From a virus (taxonomy: Duplodnaviria; Heunggongvirae; Uroviricota; Caudoviricetes), in IMG/VR virus record IMGVR_UViG_2563366805_000010, positions 1 to 41,798 of that record: a DNA stretch of 41,798 bases; one strand, 5' to 3'. The position numbers were made by a program, and so were the translations under genes. Of the stretch, positions 6,491-38,201 are shown one piece after another (position 1 is the stretch's first letter; the number at the start of each line of letters is the position of its first letter). The notes under the pieces were generated by a model. The model did not search any database and had not been told where the DNA came from. It saw only the letters and a program-made list of their open reading frames with translations.

Positions 6491-6554
6491 ACAATAGCTA
6501 AAGCGATTATTTGAGTCAATCGCTTAAACGATAATTTATTTAGCTAAAGCGATA
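6491..6554 (-). promoter_or_regulatory. Leftward early promoter PL with operator cluster OL
   Basis: On minus strand TTGACT-17 nt-TATTGT; overlapped and flanked by three sites with ATCGC half-sites (atagctaaagcgatt, atcgcttaaacgat, ttagctaaagcgat) matching the OR operators. Confidence 0.5.
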
Positions 6555-6652
6555 ATTTTATGATTTATAAGATTATTTATTTGATTGGGAAATGTGCGAT
6601 GAAATGATATTAGCGAAGGAATTGGGGGAATTTTAATCAGGTCAGGAACAAT

Positions 6653-6673: not shown

Positions 6674-7366
6674 TTATGCGAAGCGCTTGTACTCTATTGA
6701 TTGTCTTAGTAGCACTTTAGCCATTACGTAGAACTGATCTTCGTCTTCTGACTCAACATACCATTTCTCGTAGATAGGGTTGTCTGAGATGACAGCAAGC
6801 CGATCTCTTTGCATCTGAAGTCTTTTGACGTGCAGAGTTTTTCCGAACACAAATACGTAAACGCCATCACCATCAAAATGAGTCACGCCAGTATCAACAA
6901 AAATTTGATCTCCTGGTGAGATGGTTCCATCCATGCTGTCGCCGTTAACAGTGATAACTTTTACATTATCTGCGGGGCGGTTTCCGAAAAGTGCGCGAGC
7001 CTGTTCAGTTGTGTATTCGATTGCTCTTATGGTTTCGATAAAATCACTGGTAACTAGCGAGCCAGGACCGGCGCTGGCCTTAACGTCAAGCACATCCACG
7101 CGGTAAACCTCATTCATAACTGGTTTAATTTGGCATAGCGTGTTTGCTTCGCGAATGCCAGATTCCAACATCTCACCTTGCCCCGTTGAAAGCCATTCAG
7201 GACGCACACCCAGAACAGATGCGATCTCTACTGTTTTTCGTGAGCCGTTCGCACCTTTAAGTAACTTATTTACGCTGGACTGAGCCATGCCTACATCTTT
7301 CGCCAGCCTAGCCTGCGTGTATCCAGCGACGTCCATTGCGTGCCCTAAGCGTTCTGAGAATCCCAT
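6674..7366 (-). CDS. cI: CI-type phage repressor (HTH + S24 LexA-like peptidase domain)
   Basis: 230 aa; N-terminal HTH (TQARLAKDVGMAQSSVNKL); C-terminal autocleavage domain with GDSM serine and KRL lysine; AAGAGG SD; divergent from cro. Confidence 0.9.
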   Translation of the reverse strand: MGFSERLGHAMDVAGYTQARLAKDVGMAQSSVNKLLKGANGSRKTVEIASVLGVRPEWLSTGQGEMLESGIREANTLCQIKPVMNEVYRVDVLDVKASAGPGSLVTSDFIETIRAIEYTTEQARALFGNRPADNVKVITVNGDSMDGTISPGDQIFVDTGVTHFDGDGVYVFVFGKTLHVKRLQMQRDRLAVISDNPIYEKWYVESEDEDQFYVMAKVLLRQSIEYKRFA

Positions 7367-7393: not shown

Positions 7394-7467
7394 ATAGTAT
7401 CGCCAAGGCGATTGTTTGGCAAAGAATCGCATAGGCGATTGACAATCGCTAAAGTGATATACATAAT
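7394..7467. promoter_or_regulatory. OR region: divergent PRM and PR with three palindromic operators
   Basis: PR TTGACA (7439-7444)-17 nt-CATAAT rightward; PRM on minus strand TTGCCA-17 nt-TACTAT leftward; operators ATCGCCAAGGCGAT (7399-7412), ATCGCATAGGCGAT (7426-7439), ATCGCTAAAGTGAT (7445-7458). Confidence 0.6.
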
Positions 7468-7494
7468 CGCTTTAAACTGATAGCTGAGGTGATT

Positions 7495-12725: not shown

Positions 12726-13595
12726 ATGAGCACTATTACCAAAGAACGTATTGAATTGTTCATTAAAAATCCGCTTGAAAACGGGCTTACCCGTGGTGAA
12801 CAAATGGAACTGGCACGGATTGCGCTGGCATCGCTCGAAGCGGAGGCTGTGGCGTATATGCATCACAGCGGGCAGGTTGTGACGCGGGAAGAGTGCTGTG
12901 ACGACAAGATATTCGCCATTTGCTGTAAAGTCGAAACTCCCCTCTACGCAGCACCACAGTTACCGCAGCCAGTGGTGGCAATAACTCAGCATTTCGACAC
13001 AATCGCACTTGATACGGCAAAGATGGTTATGTGCGATGTGAATCGCCGCGATGAGTTTTTTGGCGGTGATATCCAGTTGCTATCCCGCATTCAATGCCGC
13101 ATTGACGAAGCCTGCCGCGCAGCCATGCTTCAGGGTAGCCAACCTGTAAGTAAGCGCGAACAGGTTCGCCGTGAACACGCTGAATGGTCAGATAAGACTT
13201 TCGGCGATGTTGGTCCCGTTGGCCCGCTTAAACACCTGTCGAAAGAGGCGCTGGAAGCTGCCGCAGAACCTGACGACCTCAGCGAGTGGGCTGACATGCA
13301 GTTCCTGTTATGGGACGCCCAGCGGCGCGCCGGTATCAGTGACGGTGAAATCACAGCTGCGATGGAAGAAAAGCTGAAAGTGAACATGGCGCGCCAGTGG
13401 CCGGAGCCGAAGGACGGAGAGCCGCGCCAGCATCTTAAGCCAGCGCCGCAGACAGTGCCTGATTCTGTGATCAGCGCAGCAGTAAATGGAATTATGGCAA
13501 CTTATGCCGACAATGCGGAAGATTGCCGGGAAATGGTACGCACACATGTTGAACAAGCCTGTCGTGCCGCTATTCAGGAGTCCGGTCATGGCTAA
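12726..13595 (+). CDS. MazG-like NTP pyrophosphohydrolase domain protein (DUF550-like)
   Basis: C-terminal FGDVGPVGPLKHLSKEALEAAAEPDDLSEWADMQFLLWDAQRRAGISD has the MazG EExxE...D pattern; N-terminal ~130 aa unassigned. Confidence 0.6.
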   Translation: MSTITKERIELFIKNPLENGLTRGEQMELARIALASLEAEAVAYMHHSGQVVTREECCDDKIFAICCKVETPLYAAPQLPQPVVAITQHFDTIALDTAKMVMCDVNRRDEFFGGDIQLLSRIQCRIDEACRAAMLQGSQPVSKREQVRREHAEWSDKTFGDVGPVGPLKHLSKEALEAAAEPDDLSEWADMQFLLWDAQRRAGISDGEITAAMEEKLKVNMARQWPEPKDGEPRQHLKPAPQTVPDSVISAAVNGIMATYADNAEDCREMVRTHVEQACRAAIQESGHG

Positions 13596-13926
13596 ATCTG
13601 CCGCTGAACGCAAAGCCGCCCAGCGAGCCCGGCAAGCTGCTGCTGGTGGTCGTAAATTTGAGCTCATGCTTGATACGCAGGAACTGGAGATGCTGGAGCG
13701 CAATTGTGCATCACGCCGCCCGGGGCGAGCGCCGTATGAAATGAGCGAATACGTCGCGATGCTGATCCGCCAGGACGATGCCCGCGTTCGTGGTCGCATT
13801 AAGTCAATCAGCGCGAACCGCTGCGGTAAATGCGGAGATGCGCTGCCGGTTAAGTCGTGTCCGTGCGACGGTGATTCGAAATGCTGGGTTACGCGTGGCT
13901 GGCATGAAACTAAATTAGCATTGTGA
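13588..13926 (+). CDS. Hypothetical zinc-ribbon protein (112 aa)
   Basis: Start overlaps upstream stop; CGKCG...CPCDG; basic N-terminus. Confidence 0.5.
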   Translation: MAKSAAERKAAQRARQAAAGGRKFELMLDTQELEMLERNCASRRPGRAPYEMSEYVAMLIRQDDARVRGRIKSISANRCGKCGDALPVKSCPCDGDSKCWVTRGWHETKLAL

Positions 13927-13955
13927 CATGTCACAATGTAATCAATAACATACAA

Positions 13956-13976
13956 GCCTCTTCGGAGGCTTTTTTT
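13956..13976 (+). terminator. Rho-independent terminator
   Basis: GCCTC-TTCG-GAGGC hairpin followed by seven T. Confidence 0.6.
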
Positions 13977-14071
13977 GTCGGCGTTAAATTGCTTTTGCCA
14001 CAATGCCCATCCATAATATCCCTGTCAGCCTGAACAACTGACACCCGGACATTCGCGCCACGGAGAACACC

Positions 14072-14170
14072 ATGGCGCAGCACCACCAGCTTAAACACAT
14101 TCGCCTGACGTTATCCGACGTCAGCGATTTGTCGTATCTGTCGCTTAACCTCTTCGGGGGTGACGCGTGA
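14072..14170 (+). CDS. Small leader ORF (32 aa) upstream of ninB
   Basis: GGAG SD; stop overlaps the ninB GTG start (GTGA); may be regulatory. Confidence 0.2.
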   Translation: MAQHHQLKHIRLTLSDVSDLSYLSLNLFGGDA

Positions 14171-14619
14171 GCCAACAATTCCACCTCGTTAACGAAAGCG
14201 TTAAGCAGAACGCTATCAACTACATTCGTCAGTTGCCAGTCGACAGTAAGCGCCCGCTGATACTCGACGTCAAAGAGTCGACGCGCACCGCTATTCAAAA
14301 TCGCAAGATGTGGCCGCTACTGAAAGATCTTTCCGACCAGGTTCTCTGGTTCGGCAATAAATACGATTCCGACGACTGGAAAGACCTCATCACCGCGCTG
14401 GTGGCGAAGACCAAAAAGCAGGAACAGCGAATGGCCCCCGGGCTTGATGGCGGCGTCGTGATGTTCGGCCAGCGCACCAGCAAAATGACCATTCCCCAGA
14501 TGGTAGAGGTCATCGAGGCGATTTACTGGTTCGGCACCCAGCAGGGCGTCACATTCAGCGAACAATCCCGCAATGAAATCGAGTGGGCAAAGCGCTGGGG
14601 GAACAGCAATGCGAAATAA
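14167..14619 (+). CDS. ninB: NinB (Orf) recombination mediator
   Basis: Matches lambda NinB pattern: QNRKMWPLL, GQRTSKM, EWAKRWG. Confidence 0.8.
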   Translation: MSQQFHLVNESVKQNAINYIRQLPVDSKRPLILDVKESTRTAIQNRKMWPLLKDLSDQVLWFGNKYDSDDWKDLITALVAKTKKQEQRMAPGLDGGVVMFGQRTSKMTIPQMVEVIEAIYWFGTQQGVTFSEQSRNEIEWAKRWGNSNAK

Positions 14620-14908: not shown

Positions 14909-15264
14909 AAATTTACGACATCACGCCGATCGGCAAGCCCCGTATGACCCGCGCCGACAAATGGAAAACACGGCCTGCGGTCATGCGTTACCGCGCATTC
15001 TGCGATGAAGCACGTCTGCGCAAAATCAATCTCCCTGAGTCCGGCGCGCATATCACCTTCGTTATGCCAATGCCTCCGAGCTGGAGCAAAAAGAAGCGTG
15101 AACAGCTCAACGGCAAGCCGCACCAGTCAAAACCAGACTGCGACAACATGCTTAAAGCACTGATGGATGCCCTGTTTGATGATGATTCCAGTGTCTGGGA
15201 TTGTCGCATTACAAAGCTATGGGGCGAGAAAGGCCAGATCATCATTCGGGAGAACGGACAATGA
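14905..15264 (+). CDS. rusA: RusA-family Holliday junction resolvase
   Basis: 119 aa; KPDCDNMLKALMDALFDD catalytic acidic cluster; ATGA coupling; nin-region position. Confidence 0.8.
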   Translation: MKIYDITPIGKPRMTRADKWKTRPAVMRYRAFCDEARLRKINLPESGAHITFVMPMPPSWSKKKREQLNGKPHQSKPDCDNMLKALMDALFDDDSSVWDCRITKLWGEKGQIIIRENGQ

Positions 15265-15944
15265 CACGCACCGATATTAACAATTACCAGAAAGCGTCTG
15301 TTGAGCGTACCAACCCGCAAAACGCCTGGGTGACGCTGGCAGCAGCACCACGCAGATCTTACCTGGGGAAATACCGCCGACTGACACCATCGCAAAGCCG
15401 TTGGGTTCGTTCGTTGCTGAACAACTGGGGCGGCATGTATGGAGGCAGCGGAATAGAACACCTTTCAGGTGGCGGTGGTATGTGGTCAATGATATTGACC
15501 GGCTGGACTGGCGAACAGCAGGAGCGGATCGCTACCGTACTGTCTGGTCTGCGTAAAATTGGCTATACCGGAGATGCGTTGTTTGAGCAGGCTAAAGCCA
15601 TCATCTGGCCGAAGAAATCACTTTCTGACCTGATCGGCAACGCCGGGGATCAAGAGGAAGCTGCATTCATGGAGGCTATCATCCTGAAGTCCTTCAAGCC
15701 GGGGAATCCCGTGTATGAGATAGGGAAGGACTATTACACCTGGAGGAAAACCATTAATGACATGGCACGGTGGATGCAATATTACTACGCGCCGTTTCTG
15801 ACCGAAAAGCAATGTATTGACCGCGTGCGCTGGTGTATTGAGTTGTTTAATTCTGCTGTCTTCTTCACGTTAAAAGATGAATTTGGCTTCGAAAATGCAA
15901 AAACTTGCGAAAAAGACTTGAAAACGAGTTTTGAAACTGCATAA
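15261..15944 (+). CDS. Putative late antiterminator (Q-like)
   Basis: 227 aa immediately upstream of the predicted late promoter and terminator and the lysis cassette; no similarity to lambda Q, call rests mainly on position. Confidence 0.5.
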   Translation: MTRTDINNYQKASVERTNPQNAWVTLAAAPRRSYLGKYRRLTPSQSRWVRSLLNNWGGMYGGSGIEHLSGGGGMWSMILTGWTGEQQERIATVLSGLRKIGYTGDALFEQAKAIIWPKKSLSDLIGNAGDQEEAAFMEAIILKSFKPGNPVYEIGKDYYTWRKTINDMARWMQYYYAPFLTEKQCIDRVRWCIELFNSAVFFTLKDEFGFENAKTCEKDLKTSFETA

Positions 15945-16062: not shown

Positions 16063-16137
16063 GGGTCAGAAGCACAGAGGTTGTGAGATCGGCTGTTAAC
16101 CGATTGGTCGAAGGTTCGAATCCTTCCTGTCCCGCCA
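16063..16137 (+). tRNA. tRNA-Asn (anticodon GTT)-like gene
   Basis: Hand-folded cloverleaf: acceptor GGGTCAG/CTGTCCC (one T-T mismatch), D-stem 3 of 4 pairs with GG in loop, anticodon stem ATCGG/CCGAT with loop CTGTTAA, 5-nt variable loop, T-arm GAAGG-TTCGAAT-CCTTC, discriminator G and encoded CCA. Confidence 0.5.
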
Positions 16138-19445: not shown

Positions 19446-21068
19446 ATGCCTCTCCCGTTTGAATTCGATTTCAGAAACCCTGATTACCAGATGGTTTTTG
19501 AATGGCGGATGGAGCGCTTACAGCGCATTCGCCAGAACCCTGAAATGCTGCCAGCGCTAAAGCAGTTTTATCGCACCAACCCGGCACAGTTCATCATCGA
19601 CTGGGGTATGACTACTGACCCGCGTAACATCGATTATGGCCTGCCGGTCACCATCCCTTTTCTGCTGTTCCCGAAACAGGAAGAGTGGATTCACTGGATC
19701 ATGGAGCGGCGCGAACGACTGGAGAACGGCATCACCGAAAAGAGCCGCGAAATGGGGCTCAGTTGGACCGCGATCGGGCTGGCCTGCTCGCTTTGTCTCT
19801 TCAACAAAGAAATGGTTATCGGTTTCGGCTCCCGTAAAGAGGAATACGTCGACAGCACCGGTGACCCGAAGGCGCTGTTCTGGAAGGCGCGAAAGTTCGT
19901 GGAAACACTGCCCATCGAGTTTCGTGGTTCGTGGGACGAGAAGAAGCATGCGCCGTATATGCGCGTTGAGTTTCCAGATACTGGCGCGGTTATCAAAGGC
20001 GAGGCTGGCGACAATATCGGACGTGGTGACCGTACCACGCTCTACCTGGTGGATGAAGCTGCATTCCTCCAGCGTCCTCTGTTGATTGATGCGGCGCTGT
20101 CGCAAACCACCCGTTGCCGTATTGACCTGAGCTCGGTTAATGGCATGGCGAACCCGTTCGCGCAGAAGCGTCACGGCGGGAAGATACCGGTATTCACATT
20201 CCACTGGCGGGATGATCCTCGCAAGGATGAAGAGTGGTATCGCAGGGAGTGCGAGAAAATCGACAATCCGGTGGTGGTGGCGCAGGAACTTGACCTGAAC
20301 TACAGCGCATCTGCGGAAGGCGTCCTGATCCCGTCCGACTGGGTACAGGCTGCCGTCGACGCGCATATCAAACTTGGTATTCAGCCAACGGGCAAGCGAC
20401 TGGGCGCGATGGACGTCGCCGACGAAGGCCGGGACAAAAACGCCTTTTCGACCCGTCACGGCTTCCTCCTGGAGAACGTGCGGGAATGGTCCGGCGTGGG
20501 CAGCGACATTTACCAGTCCGTTGAGAAGGTCTTCGGCTTTTGCGAACAGGACAACCTCGAAGAATTTCGCTTCGACGAGGACGGCCTGGGCGCTGGCGTT
20601 CGCGGCGATGCACGCGCCATCAACGAACTGCGTAACGCTGCGCGCCGACCGTCAATACTCGCCACACCGTTTCGCGGTAGCGGCGCGGTGTTTGATCCGG
20701 ACGACGAAGCGGTGCGCGGCGACAACGGACAGGCCGCCCGCCTGAACAAGGACTTCTTTGCTAACGCCAAGGCCCAGAGCTGGTGGCAATTACGCAAGCT
20801 TTTCCAGAACACCTGGCGCGCCGTGGTTGAGGGAATGGCCTACAACCCGGACGAAATTATCTCAATCAGCAGCGCCATGGCGAGCAAAGACAAACTCATC
20901 ATCGAGCTGTCGCAACCGACCTATTCCATTAACGGTGTGGGGAAAATCGTTGTTGATAAACAGCCTGACGGCACCAAGTCGCCGAACCTCGCCGACTCGG
21001 TGATGATCAGCTACGCGCCAATGAATTCAGCCCTGAACATCTGGGAGCTGCTAGGGAGACAGGCCTGA
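19446..21068 (+). CDS. Terminase large subunit
   Basis: 540 aa; ATPase then nuclease halves; acidic segment LYLVDEAAF resembles a Walker B; followed by portal. Confidence 0.8.
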
Positions 21069-22537
21069 TGGCACGAAACAAGCAAGCCTCTCAGCGAACG
21101 GCGCAGGCCACCGCTGATGGCTATGAAAACTTTGTCGCCCGCGTGGGGATGCAGACGCCTAACCAGCATTCAGCATCGACCTACCGGGCGAACTTCACCA
21201 GCCGCAACCGCATGCTGGTGGAATGGTCATATCGCGGATCGTGGGTTATCGGCGAAGCGGTCGACGCTATCCCGGACGATATGACCCGGAAAGGCATTCG
21301 CATCACTTCGGAGATTGACGCCAAAGACCGTGGCACCCTGGAAGCGCAGCTGGATGAGTTGCAGATCTGGGATGCGCTGAACGACGTGCTGAAATGGTCG
21401 CGTCTCTACGGCGGCGCGGTGGGCTTCATCATGATTGAGGGGCAGGCACCAATGACCCCGTTGCGGCTCGAAACCATTGGAGAAGGCAAGTTTAAGGGCA
21501 TTCTCCCGCTCGACCGCTGGATGATTAACCCGGTGCTGACCCGCCGCATTAAAGATATGGGGCCGGACCTCGGCAAGCCTGAGTTTTACGACGTGGTGAC
21601 CACTGCAACGGGCATCCCGGCCTGGCGCATCCATCACAGCCGCCTGATTCGCTTCGACGGGGTGACGCTGCCATTCCAGCAGAAGATGACCGAAAACGAA
21701 TGGGGAATGTCGGTTGTAGAGCGTATCTGGGATCGGCTTACTGCGTTCGATAGCGCTACTGTCGGCGCGGCGCAGCTGGTCTATAAAGCGCATCTGCGTA
21801 CCTATAGCGTGGAGAAGTTGCGCGAGCTTATCGCGCTTGGAGGCCCGGCGTTCGAAGCGTTGCTGAAGAACATCGACCTGATCCGCCAGTTCCAGAGCAA
21901 TGAAGGTATGACGCTCATGGACTCGCGGGATAAGTTCGAAACCCACCAGTACAGCTTTAGTGGTCTGGATGACATTCTTTCGCAGTTTGCTGAGCAGATC
22001 AGCGGTGCCGTTGGTATCCCGCTGGTACGCCTGTTCGGTCAATCCCCGAAAGGCTTCTCTACTGGTGATGCAGACCTCGCCAACTATTACGACCGGGTGA
22101 GCTCATTGCAGGAGCGCCGCTTACGGCTGCCGATGCGCCGGATACTGGACATTATGCACCGCTCGGAACTCGGAAAGCCGCTGCCGGACGATTTCACGTT
22201 TGAGTTTAACCCGCTATGGCAAATGTCAGACGTTGACCGATCAACGGTGGCCGTAAACACCACCAACGCGATCAGTACCGCGCTGGGCGACGGATTGATG
22301 ACGCGTAAGGCGGCGATGACCGACCTGCGCGAAAACTCTGACGTCACCGGCATCGGGGCATCCATTACCGACGAGGATATCGAGAATGCCGAAGACGAAG
22401 CGCCGCCAGGCATCGGCGAACTTGGCGACAAACCGCCAGAGCCGCCAGGCGGAGATCCGATATCGAACGAGTCTACGGCAGATAGCGCGGGCGGTCGGGG
22501 ATATCGTAAATGGTCGCTACGATGGTTCAAACGATAG
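21068..22537 (+). CDS. Portal protein
   Basis: 489 aa directly after terminase, acidic low-complexity C-terminus; start overlaps terminase stop. Confidence 0.75.
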   Translation: MARNKQASQRTAQATADGYENFVARVGMQTPNQHSASTYRANFTSRNRMLVEWSYRGSWVIGEAVDAIPDDMTRKGIRITSEIDAKDRGTLEAQLDELQIWDALNDVLKWSRLYGGAVGFIMIEGQAPMTPLRLETIGEGKFKGILPLDRWMINPVLTRRIKDMGPDLGKPEFYDVVTTATGIPAWRIHHSRLIRFDGVTLPFQQKMTENEWGMSVVERIWDRLTAFDSATVGAAQLVYKAHLRTYSVEKLRELIALGGPAFEALLKNIDLIRQFQSNEGMTLMDSRDKFETHQYSFSGLDDILSQFAEQISGAVGIPLVRLFGQSPKGFSTGDADLANYYDRVSSLQERRLRLPMRRILDIMHRSELGKPLPDDFTFEFNPLWQMSDVDRSTVAVNTTNAISTALGDGLMTRKAAMTDLRENSDVTGIGASITDEDIENAEDEAPPGIGELGDKPPEPPGGDPISNESTADSAGGRGYRKWSLRWFKR

Positions 22538-23159
22538 CGTCACCGAAATAATGGATGCGCTGGAGCGCTACAGCGAAATCATCACCCCCTGGGCGACTAA
22601 GGTTGCTGAGAGCTTCACCGCCGACATTGCGCGCCAGAATGAAAAGCAGTGGCGTCAGCACAGTCGGAACATCAGCGCAGAACTACGCAACATGGTCGAC
22701 CGCGCCCCGGTAGGCCAGGTGATGAAATCCATCGTCGCCGAGCAAATTAAGTACATCAAATCTCTGCCTCTTGAGGCCGCCGATCGGGTGTATGACATTC
22801 AGAACAAGGCCATCGAGGCTGTAGTAACTGGTGGCCGCGCTGAGCCATTCGCGAAAGAGATAGCTGCTTCCGGTGACGTGTCACGCTCACGAGCGAACCT
22901 TATCGCCCGGACTGAGCTTGGGCGCGCAACCGGTGCATTGGATCAGGCGCGTGCGCTGTCAATCGGCTCGAATGGTTATATCTGGCGTACAGCCGAAGAT
23001 GGCGACGTCCGGCATTCTCATCGGGAGATGGAAGGTAAGTTTGTCGAATGGGGCCGACCTCCAACGCTTGACGGTATGACCGGTCACGCTGGTGAGCTGC
23101 CGAACTGCCGCTGTTACAAAGAAATCGTCTTCCCCAACCCTCATTCTTATCTCGCCTGA
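22386..23159 (+). CDS. Head morphogenesis protein (Mu F / SPP1 gp7-like)
   Basis: C-terminal RTAEDGDVRHSHREMEGK...PNCRCY matches the F-like minor head protein signature; 5' 152 nt overlap the portal ORF, an in-frame ATG at 22548 is an alternative start. Confidence 0.7.
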   Translation: MPKTKRRQASANLATNRQSRQAEIRYRTSLRQIARAVGDIVNGRYDGSNDSVTEIMDALERYSEIITPWATKVAESFTADIARQNEKQWRQHSRNISAELRNMVDRAPVGQVMKSIVAEQIKYIKSLPLEAADRVYDIQNKAIEAVVTGGRAEPFAKEIAASGDVSRSRANLIARTELGRATGALDQARALSIGSNGYIWRTAEDGDVRHSHREMEGKFVEWGRPPTLDGMTGHAGELPNCRCYKEIVFPNPHSYLA

Positions 23160-25908: not shown

Positions 25909-26298
25909 ATGGCGAAAGAAAAGCTGGTTACCATCCATGTTCACACCCCGTTTACGCTGACGCTCGGCGATCAGTCAAAAAGGGAGTTTGGCCGGGGACG
26001 GCATAACGTACCGGAAGAGGTCGCGTCGCACTGGTTCACCCAGGCGCACTCCGAGCTTTCCGAAAGCGTGATTAGCGACACCGATGATCTGCAACCCATT
26101 ATCGACAGCCTGCAAGCTCAGATTGCCGACAAAGATAAGCAGATTATCGATAAAGATCAGTTGATTGCCGATCTGCGAGAAGCGCTGCTCAAGCTGCAAG
26201 AGCAGAACGACAGCCTGCAAGCGCAGATTGCTGCCGCCCAGACTGGCGGTAATGGGGCGAAAGATGCCAAAGAATCAAAGCCTGCCAACAGTAAGTGA
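25909..26298 (+). CDS. Hypothetical coiled-coil protein
   Basis: 129 aa; heptad-like [44 protein letters not shown]. Confidence 0.5.
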
Positions 26299-37001: not shown

Positions 37002-38201
37002 ATGGCTTTGAACCTCGACACGCTGGGGCTATCGGCAACGGTAACCGCCCAGGGGATTAGTGCGCCTGATTACCAGACAATCCTAGATACACTGACCAGC
37101 TATTTCAGGCAGATTTACGGTAGTGATGCCTACCTCGAACCAGACAGCAAAGATGGGCAAATGGTCGCGCTGGTGGCTCTTGCGGTGCATGACGCTAACA
37201 ATACCGCTATCGAGATCTACAACTCTTTTTCACCGACGACAGCGCAGGCCGCAGCGCTTAGCAACAATGTGAAAATTAACGGGATCACGCGAAAAGTAGC
37301 GACAAACTCTACTGCTGACCTTCTGTTAACCGGTACGGCAGGCACGACTATCACGAATGGCTCCGCACGGGATAAAAACGGCATTATCTGGAATTTTCCA
37401 GCGAGTGTGGCGATCGGCGTTGATGGTACTGTGCTGGTGACGGCCACATGTGCGAATAGCGGTTCGGTTGCGGCGCTGGCCGGGACTATCACCACCATTA
37501 ACACACCGACTCGCGGATGGGTATCAGTCACCAACCCAGCAGCGGCTACGGTTGGTTCTCCGGCCGAGACAGACGCGGAGCTTCGCATCCGGCAGGGCCA
37601 GAGCGTCGCGCTACCGTCAATCACCCCGTTTGAAGGTGTCGACGGTGCTATTGCTAATGTTAATGGCGTGACACGTCACAAACTGTACGAGAATGACACT
37701 GGCTCGACAGATAGCAACGGGCTGCCGCCTCATTCCATTTCTGCGATTGTTGACGGCGGTGATGTGACAGAAATCGCCCAGACCATCAGGGGGAATAAAG
37801 GGCAGGGAACCGCAACTTACGGTAAAACTTCTGTCACAGTGCCGGATACTTATGGTAATCCTCACGTCATCAGTTTTTCGCGCTCTACCGATGTGCCAAT
37901 TTTCGTAGCCATTACCCTGAAAGTTTTTACCGGCTATACCTCTCAAATCGGCGAGCAGATTAAACAGGCTGTTGCCGATTATATAAATGGCCTGACAATT
38001 GGCGACGACGTTCTGCTGAGCCGTATTTATTCCCCGGCAAACCTCGGCGTTGTGAGCGGCGGGAATGCCCGCTATTACGATATTACCGACCTGCTGATCG
38101 GTAAGTCGTCTGGCAGCGTATCGGCATCAAACATTGATATTGCCTATGATGCTTCTGCGTCCTGTAGCACCGCGAATATCAGTATCACGGTGACCTCATG
38201 A
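37002..38201 (+). CDS. Baseplate J-like protein
   Basis: 399 aa; AETDAELRIRQ and C-terminal beta-rich region typical of the baseplate J family; order as Mu gp47 and e14 jayE. Confidence 0.7.
   Translation: MALNLDTLGLSATVTAQGISAPDYQTILDTLTSYFRQIYGSDAYLEPDSKDGQMVALVALAVHDANNTAIEIYNSFSPTTAQAAALSNNVKINGITRKVATNSTADLLLTGTAGTTITNGSARDKNGIIWNFPASVAIGVDGTVLVTATCANSGSVAALAGTITTINTPTRGWVSVTNPAAATVGSPAETDAELRIRQGQSVALPSITPFEGVDGAIANVNGVTRHKLYENDTGSTDSNGLPPHSISAIVDGGDVTEIAQTIRGNKGQGTATYGKTSVTVPDTYGNPHVISFSRSTDVPIFVAITLKVFTGYTSQIGEQIKQAVADYINGLTIGDDVLLSRIYSPANLGVVSGGNARYYDITDLLIGKSSGSVSASNIDIAYDASASCSTANISITVTS

Follow-up and report, generated by a model that had tools for sequence, protein, structure and literature searches.

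Binding sites that lie in, or directly beside, the gene of their own binding protein are known from the Lac repressor and from ParB/parS. At operator O3, in the 3' end of lacI, LacI is said to act as a roadblock that gives rise to non-stop mRNA and SsrA tagging of the product. MatP, which binds matS sites in the host Ter macrodomain, is reportedly a ribbon-helix-helix protein. The matS site itself is 13 base pairs (bp) long, GTGAC[AG]N[TC]GTCAC, with GTGACATTGTCAC as the E. coli consensus (PMC3116907, PMC3603311, PMC8669397), and a survey of 500 prophages by Bobay et al. detected none (PMC3603311). Here we analyse a 41,798-nucleotide (nt) stretch of DNA from a Caudoviricetes virus (IMG/VR record IMGVR_UViG_2563366805_000010, positions 1 to 41,798), the whole of which we call the window. 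In it, the stop codon of a small gene of the phrog_536 family is covered by a palindrome whose conserved part, the dyad GTGAC-N2-GTCAC, has the half-sites of matS, and we discuss what this pairing of gene and site may mean.

A dyad on the stop codon and the gene that accompanies it

The gene, at 13588-13926 on the plus strand, encodes a 112-amino-acid (aa), Cys-rich protein of the phrog_536 family and is the last gene of the early/accessory block. A preliminary description of the window had reported a 16-bp perfect palindrome over its stop; this is TTGTGACATGTCACAA, at 13921-13936, and it proved to be the inner part of a 20-bp perfect palindrome, CATTGTGACATGTCACAATG, at 13919-13938 (no strand), with the TGA stop codon (13924-13926) inside it. 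Mononucleotide shuffles of the window, from which the expectation for palindrome length was taken, gave 0.04 palindromes of 20 bp or more per window. The 20-bp length is an allele-specific extension, because it is the single longest form, seen in one of 104 distinct dyad contexts. What is conserved is only the 12-bp core, which here reads GTGAC-AT-GTCAC (13923-13934, no strand), overlaps the TGA and is our proposed cognate site of the protein encoded at 13588-13926. A likeness of the 20-bp palindrome to CRP, LexA or lac-operator sites, judged by eye against the consensus sites, was rejected because other alleles do not keep the outer bases and the spacing does not fit. A promoter overlapping the dyad (GTGACA-17-TAACAT), flagged by a promoter scan, was likewise rejected because its -10 element is not conserved in the other downstream classes.

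Close relatives were drawn from IMG/VR as a set of 80 loci with a homologue of the 112-aa gene at 77% identity or more. In about 75 of 79 of these loci the dyad overlaps or adjoins the stop codon (G-TGA-C). When 71 distinct sequences are compared, conservation is 92-100% at positions -4 to +8 relative to the stop and falls to background on either side, in the last sense codons and from +9 onwards; the last codon can be GTG, TTG, ATG, CTG, GCG or TCG (V, L, M, A or S), with only its third-position G constant. In phage ZF40 the stop is TAA and the entire dyad lies 3' of it, so coding does not account for the palindrome. The centre of the dyad varies (AT, AG, CT, TG, AC, GC), in contrast to the constant half-sites and 2-bp spacer: in the 573 kb of fetched DNA over which dyads and spacers were counted, there are 128 sites with an N2 spacer against 0.55 expected, and none with a spacer of N0, N1 or N3-N6. 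Judged from these comparisons, the dyad is a DNA element under selection.

The DNA 3' of the dyad falls into at least nine unrelated classes that diverge directly after it, and the palindrome sits exactly at a mosaic joint. This is where a chance palindrome or a passive, functionless recombination scar could also be found, an explanation whose probability we regard as next to negligible: the shuffle, conservation and spacer statistics contradict it, as do the co-occurrence figures given below, and the dyad is conserved beside homologues only about 30% identical, in phages of unrelated types. Nor does the palindrome seem to work as RNA. The window allele would form a 9-bp stem of -10.4 kcal/mol directly before a terminator hairpin, as might be expected of a stabiliser or processing site at the mRNA 3' end. 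However, the folding of all 104 dyad contexts (median minimum free energy -5.0, against -3.4 ± 2.3 in shuffles) led us to reject a hairpin model, which we consider extremely improbable: the fold is not conserved, the 2 nt between the conserved half-sites are not enough for a loop, the centre is unconstrained and is non-palindromic in 27 contexts, and an Rfam scan of 13800-14300 gave nothing near gathering scores.

The pairing of gene and dyad recurs in distant phages. By tblastn the family is present in 144 phage records, among them epsilon15, phiV10, ZF40, phiKO2, N15 and Yersinia and Vibrio phages. In phiKO2 and N15 (about 35-42% identity) GTGAC-TG-GTCAC stands on the stop codon; in Vibrio K303 (36% identity) the dyad is 226 nt downstream of the gene. 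Among three more distant loci, a Mu-like phage (L185) has the dyad within the C-terminal tail of the gene, a Vibrio prophage (L186) contains it inside the gene, with RDLSR in the protein in place of the QQLAE of relatives, and a third has two tandem dyads 32 bp apart, some 180-215 nt downstream of the gene. Over nine lineages, down to about 30% identity, the offsets from the stop to the nearest dyad are -3, -3, -3, -3, +3, -32, -124, +182 and +226 nt. Six complete genomes that carry the gene (the window, epsilon15, ZF40, phiKO2, N15 and Vibrio K303) contain exactly three dyads each, and lambda and P22, taken as controls, contain none; shuffles of the window predict 0.03 dyads, and three copies were reached in 0 of 100. 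A further association comes from a structural-module set of 80 phages that have a common head gene (98% identity or more) and mosaic early regions: the commonest phage dyad, GTGACATGTCAC, is present in all 14 phages in which tblastn finds the gene and in none of the 66 without it. On this evidence, gene and dyad are one portable, co-inherited module.

Could the dyad instead be a site for a host protein, MatP on a matS-like sequence or some other host regulator, with the phage gene a mere neighbour? The half-sites equal those of matS, and the hosts of all carriers belong to Vibrio, Aeromonas and the enterobacteria, groups that possess MatP. We nevertheless think this highly improbable, given the strict 2-bp spacer, the complete lack of 13-bp matS-type sites in all loci (573 kb), the perfect co-occurrence with the phage gene (14/14 against 0/66) and the report that prophages are free of matS (PMC3603311).

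The phrog_536 protein and a possible gate at the operon end

The protein matches the phrog_536 profile over its full length (E 5.6e-51, residues 1-110), and PHROGs labels this family 'transcriptional regulator'. Homologues include epsilon15 gp49, N15 gp46, ZF40 gp22 and phiKO2 gp45, and the family comprises 243 clusters among 1.84 billion representatives; an identical E. coli prophage annotates the 112-aa gene as hypothetical (WP_001129682.1). Residues C40, C79, C82 and C99 are invariant or nearly so across the family, which suggests that the protein carries a Zn site. An earlier AlphaFold2 model from a shallow alignment was unusable (predicted local distance difference test, pLDDT, 60), whereas a diverse alignment gave a pLDDT of 85 and a predicted template-modelling (TM) score of 0.67. 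The latter model starts with a basic helix at the N terminus and continues with an extended stretch (residues 19-29), two helices (30-42 and 52-74), a Cys-rich knuckle and a C-terminal helix. Its strand-helix-helix pattern is compatible with a ribbon-helix-helix dimer, though the evidence for one is weak. A Foldseek search of BFVD returned a sole match, a 46-aa fragment of the phrog_536 family itself. We found no paper with the 12-mer sequence or on the function of the family (epsilon15 gp49, N15 gene 46), and the module of dyad and gene appears to be undescribed in the searchable literature.

In 7 of 7 fetched phage records the gene is the last one of an early-region block and a module boundary comes next, with terS, NinB/DUF1367, holin or other genes beyond it; in the distant loci L185 and L186 it is directly followed by GemA or an unnamed gene and a Mor-type activator gene. 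The reading we favour, with a probability of roughly 45%, is that the dyad is the cognate DNA-binding site of the phrog_536 protein and acts as a transcriptional gate or roadblock that reinforces the end of the operon, with feedback on the protein's own synthesis. A small, zinc-binding protein would bind the dyad overlapping its own gene, and this gene-site module would close the early operon before genes that switch on late functions (nin and Q-like genes here; terS, Mor or lysis genes elsewhere). When bound, the protein would gate or block RNA polymerase arriving from the early promoter, making a stronger operon boundary; because the dyad covers the last codons of the gene, it might also feed back on the protein's own synthesis, by analogy with LacI at O3. 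Beyond the module, transcription would meet an intrinsic terminator, and that of the ninB-to-Q region probably restarts from a sigma70-like promoter. A conserved stem-loop would open the restarted transcript, with a shared ribosome-binding site after it, and a 32-codon open reading frame (ORF) would merely bring ribosomes to the overlapping ninB start, as ninA does in lambda and P22. We infer DNA binding by the protein from the genetics of the site and not from the fold; the roadblock and the autoregulation are inferences too.

Several observations weigh against this reading. Pfam and NCBIfam contain no significant family for the full proteins or the isolated N-terminal domain (for the domain, nothing from Pfam), and neither a sequence or profile search of the PDB (E<=10) nor Foldseek against the PDB gave a significant match to the 112-aa protein. 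Matches to ribbon-helix-helix proteins are weak only (NF008671, E 0.004; PF10723, E 0.034; ParD2 by Foldseek, E 6.8, TM score 0.63). The Yersinia homologue has no adjacent exact dyad, its only copy being 3.4 kb away, and neither has the Aeromonas homologue. Many relatives in the 80-locus set have no terminator after the dyad, and where one follows directly, as in the window some 20 nt downstream, a terminator right after a roadblock would be redundant. There are no CI operators (ATCGC-N6-GCGAT) near the candidate promoter, and a lysogen would be put at risk if an unregulated promoter drove a Q-like gene. Dyads away from the gene end are heterogeneous (intragenic, promoter-proximal or at convergent gene ends) and only partially fit a roadblock. 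Finally, the two further copies in the window occur in phages without phrog_536. These are GTGACGTGTCAC (centre GT; 22873-22884, no strand), within a head-morphogenesis-like gene, and GTGACACGTCAC (centre AC, the reverse complement of the 12-mer at 22873; 37668-37679, no strand), within a baseplate-J-like gene; their link to the system is uncertain, and they cannot be tied to the gene because 78 of the 80 phages with that head gene have the copy inside it, irrespective of phrog_536.

Other copies and variants show the range of positions. The 12-mer GTGACGTGTCAC has an extra copy within another gene at L133:3341 and L144:1387, and intragenic dyads are found in repA of N15 and phiKO2, in the Mu-like transposase and in ZF40 gp08 and gp12. 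The dyads of Vibrio K303 (L178) at 21342 and 35942 are exactly 31 nt upstream of the start codons of gene 0032 and of the small terminase gene, a placement that suggests a role close to a promoter or in the 5' untranslated region (UTR). Aeromonas 85AhydR10PP (L181) carries three copies (19904, 44302, 46954) of an asymmetric variant 12-mer, GTGTCCGGTCAC, one of them 14 nt upstream of the homologue; this may be a diverged version of the site.

The order of gene, site and terminator also recalls lambda Q and tR', where, at the early-to-late junction, the last gene of an operon likewise has its DNA site and then a terminator directly behind it. By that analogy, a factor encoded by the last early gene could load at the dyad, read through the terminator downstream and so turn on the next gene set. 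A terminator 0-30 nt beyond the site is seen in the window, in epsilon15 and in downstream clusters 1 and 4; in epsilon15 all three dyads are just upstream of terminator-like hairpins with T-runs, at the ends of transcription units, and two of these hairpins are annotated as terminators in the record. The module, moreover, always stands at the early-to-late junction, with Q, Mor, terS or lysis genes beyond it. Antitermination of this kind still strikes us as rather improbable. Q engages a polymerase that has paused close to its promoter, and neither a promoter of that kind nor a sigma-dependent pause is evident at the dyad; the two proteins are unrelated, and the window phage has a Q-like gene of its own. 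Many loci have no terminator after the dyad, two of the epsilon15 sites lie at convergent gene ends, where read-through would yield antisense RNA, and the conserved promoter 3' of the terminator leaves less need for read-through here.

The surroundings of the dyad in epsilon15 and its relatives hold further elements. The 'repressor' operators named by the depositors of epsilon15 (L094), at 12-27, 2931-2947, 19895-19911 and others, precede late operons and come directly after boundaries of dyad plus terminator; they were rejected as versions of the dyad, having a different sequence, ATTACC-N5-GGTAAT. In many epsilon15-like relatives (L034, L038, L046, L023 and others, in downstream clusters 2, 5, 6 and 11) and in the phiKO2 record (25981-26001), LexA-box promoters (TACTGT-N8-ACAGTA) and their moron cassettes, UmuD-like genes (MGFPSPAADY...) among them, are inserted directly after the dyad.

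From the terminator to ninB

The window phage is lambdoid and temperate. Its sequence is essentially that of Citrobacter phage Omnitron (CP115737.1, an unannotated record) and of prophages in several strains of E. coli. A CI-like repressor gene (6674-7366, minus strand) is followed by a CII-like gene, O and DnaB-type replication genes, the accessory block, ninB, a DUF1364/HNH gene and rusA; then come the Q-like antiterminator gene (15261-15944), a tRNA-Asn (GTT; 16063-16137) between the Q-like gene and the holin, the lysis genes and a myovirus-type structural module. Arrays of CI/Cro operators, ATCGC-N6-GCGAT-type dyads, are found at OR (7396-7475) and OL (6491-6558), and no N-like gene was recognised in the window phage.

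The preliminary description had placed a terminator, a candidate promoter (TTGCTT-17-CATAAT) and a 32-aa ORF whose stop overlaps the GTG start of ninB after the palindrome, and all of these are present. By its pattern of a GC-rich hairpin and a T-run, the terminator (13954-13978, plus strand) qualifies as intrinsic, or rho-independent: a 7-bp GC-rich stem with a TTCG loop (AAGCCTC-TTCG-GAGGCTT, 13954-13971) is followed by seven T, the hairpin region having -11.5 kcal/mol. It is kept in 26 cluster-0 loci, with changes that are U.G-compatible. The description had further suggested a regulated boundary here between the accessory genes and the nin region. The boundary stands, with a terminator at the place of tR2 in lambda and P22, whereas the palindrome is no element of the nin region but part of the upstream gene module, and it is kept when the downstream DNA consists of terS, LexA-controlled morons, Mor genes and others.

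The sigma70-like promoter candidate (13989-14017, plus strand) consists of TTGCTT at 13989-13994, a 17-nt spacer and CATAAT at 14012-14017, with a predicted start at about G14024. Its hexamers match at 3/6 and 5/6 positions, under the threshold of the promoter scan, which hence did not list it. Among 18 distinct relatives none of the 12 hexamer columns is variable, against 19 of 40 surrounding non-coding columns (Fisher p = 0.002). The LHM10-1 prophage, whose upstream DNA is unrelated, has TTGATT-17-CATACT, likewise 6 nt away from the hairpin that follows, and its homology to the window begins at 14024, the predicted start site.

That hairpin, a 5' stem-loop GUCAG-CCUGAACAA-CUGAC (14024-14042, plus strand), starts at the first base of the predicted transcript. 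Its 9-nt loop (NCUGARMAN, or (C/U/A)CUGA(A/G)(C/A)A(A/C)) is conserved on four different stems, of which that of ZF40 (L010:1871-1889) is wholly different, and the element has no Rfam match. In a small sample, 100% of cells are paired, two pairs show compensatory change and slid registers collapse, and 8 of 500 shuffles reach the score. The element could be an mRNA stabiliser or a loop recognised by a protein or RNA.

Downstream, a Shine-Dalgarno sequence, GGAG (14062-14065), and the ATG at 14072-14074 (together 14062-14074, plus strand) are common to three alternative first genes: the leader with NinB, a DUF1367 gene (MAHLQLIK...) and a third (MAQEKIGTF...). PGAP assigns this ATG as a DUF1367 start. 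A mosaic joint lies directly after ATGGCGCA (14072-14079 in the window; L003, L004, L021), and the same 5' UTR, ribosome-binding site and first two or three codons lead into three different genes; ZF40 gp23 also begins MAQH.

In the window the ATG opens the 32-codon ORF (14072-14170, plus strand), whose TGA overlaps the GTG of ninB at 14167. The recombination mediator gene ninB (Orf/NinB; 14167-14619, plus strand) is identified by PF05772 (E 7e-50) and phrog_72. Conservation of the leader had been put forward as a check, and the result is negative: codon differences are 9 nonsynonymous against 2 synonymous, compared with 5 against 28 in NinB of the same pair, the peptide has no Pfam or PHROG match, and its ATG serves at least three alternative first genes. 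By these comparisons the leader peptide is not conserved. An upstream ORF ending on the ninB start nevertheless recurs in the ET245 allele and in lambda and P22, which points to ninA-like translational coupling rather than to a functional peptide. An inverted repeat, CTGACGT-N6-ACGTCAG (14105-14124), lies within the ORF and is partly kept in the LHM10-1 allele though the peptide changes.

Comparison with MatP/matS and other described systems

The terminator, the ninA-like ORF and the ninB boundary are ordinary, known lambdoid anatomy. As in lambda and P22, an intrinsic terminator separates the replication and accessory genes from ninB, and the ninB start is overlapped by the stop of a small ORF, 26 codons long in P22, whose G-rich 3' end gives the ninB Shine-Dalgarno sequence; in the P22 record the terminator appears as 'terminator L2; similar to phage lambda'. 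The 32-codon ORF and the terminator are thus positional analogues of ninA and tR2, but neither peptide nor terminator is similar in sequence to those of lambda and P22. There the terminator lies inside ninA with no promoter after it, whereas the order in the window is terminator, promoter-like element, 5' hairpin and ORF.

LacI and O3 offer the closest analogy for feedback: a palindromic operator covers the last codons of the regulator's own gene, and there are further operators elsewhere, one of them intragenic. The differences are that the protein families are unrelated, that the sites in the window are kilobases apart and that binding here is predicted. Outside the transcriptional reading, the dyad provides a concrete candidate for the DNA target of a widespread, uncharacterised family (epsilon15, phiV10, N15, phiKO2, ZF40, Vibrio and Mu-like phages and many enterobacterial prophages), located at the early/late-switch junction in every case. 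Since the module moves as a unit and its site can be recognised by eye, it may also be of use in annotating prophages, as a marker of where operons end and mosaic joints lie.

An alternative to the gate is that the protein and about three dispersed dyads organise, tether or loop the genome in the manner of MatP/matS or ParB/parS, the copy at the gene end being a site next to its own gene and not a transcription element. ParB/parS and the SopB sites of N15 resemble the module in having a palindrome in or beside the gene of the binding protein and a few dispersed copies. Three orientation-free dyads in each of six genomes, several of them intragenic, and the two sites that bracket terS-terL in epsilon15-like phages would agree with such a role. 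We consider it unlikely, if still deserving of attention, because the phrog_536 protein has no sequence or fold similarity to MatP or ParB, oligomerisation is without evidence, and most carriers are integrating prophages with no need of partition. The system also lacks a ParA partner, and N15 and phiKO2, which carry both SopB sites and dyads, already have SopB sites with a different palindrome, GTGCGACCACGGTCGCAC, which was rejected as a form of the dyad.

The resemblance to matS is a lead only: the half-sites GTGAC and GTCAC are identical, the centre is variable, the copies are dispersed and orientation-free, and the site is a small one of dimer type. The commonest phage dyad is the matS consensus minus one central base. 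MatP/matS differs in its 3-bp spacer, against 2 bp in the phages, and the dyads are on phage genomes beside a phage gene; no MatP chain was returned for the phrog_536 protein by the PDB profile search (E<=10) or by Foldseek against the PDB. A bolder idea, which we hold to be distinctly improbable, is that temperate phages of MatP-bearing gamma-proteobacteria possess a miniature matS-like system of their own, in which a zinc-binding protein and about three sites that equal matS less one base pair, and are invisible to host MatP, would serve to organise the phage genome, to insulate it, or to disturb the functions of host MatP, MukBEF or the divisome. If true, this could explain why prophages avoid true matS yet keep a near-copy, and the near-identity of the two sites raises the question of cross-talk between the phage module and the organisation of the host chromosome.

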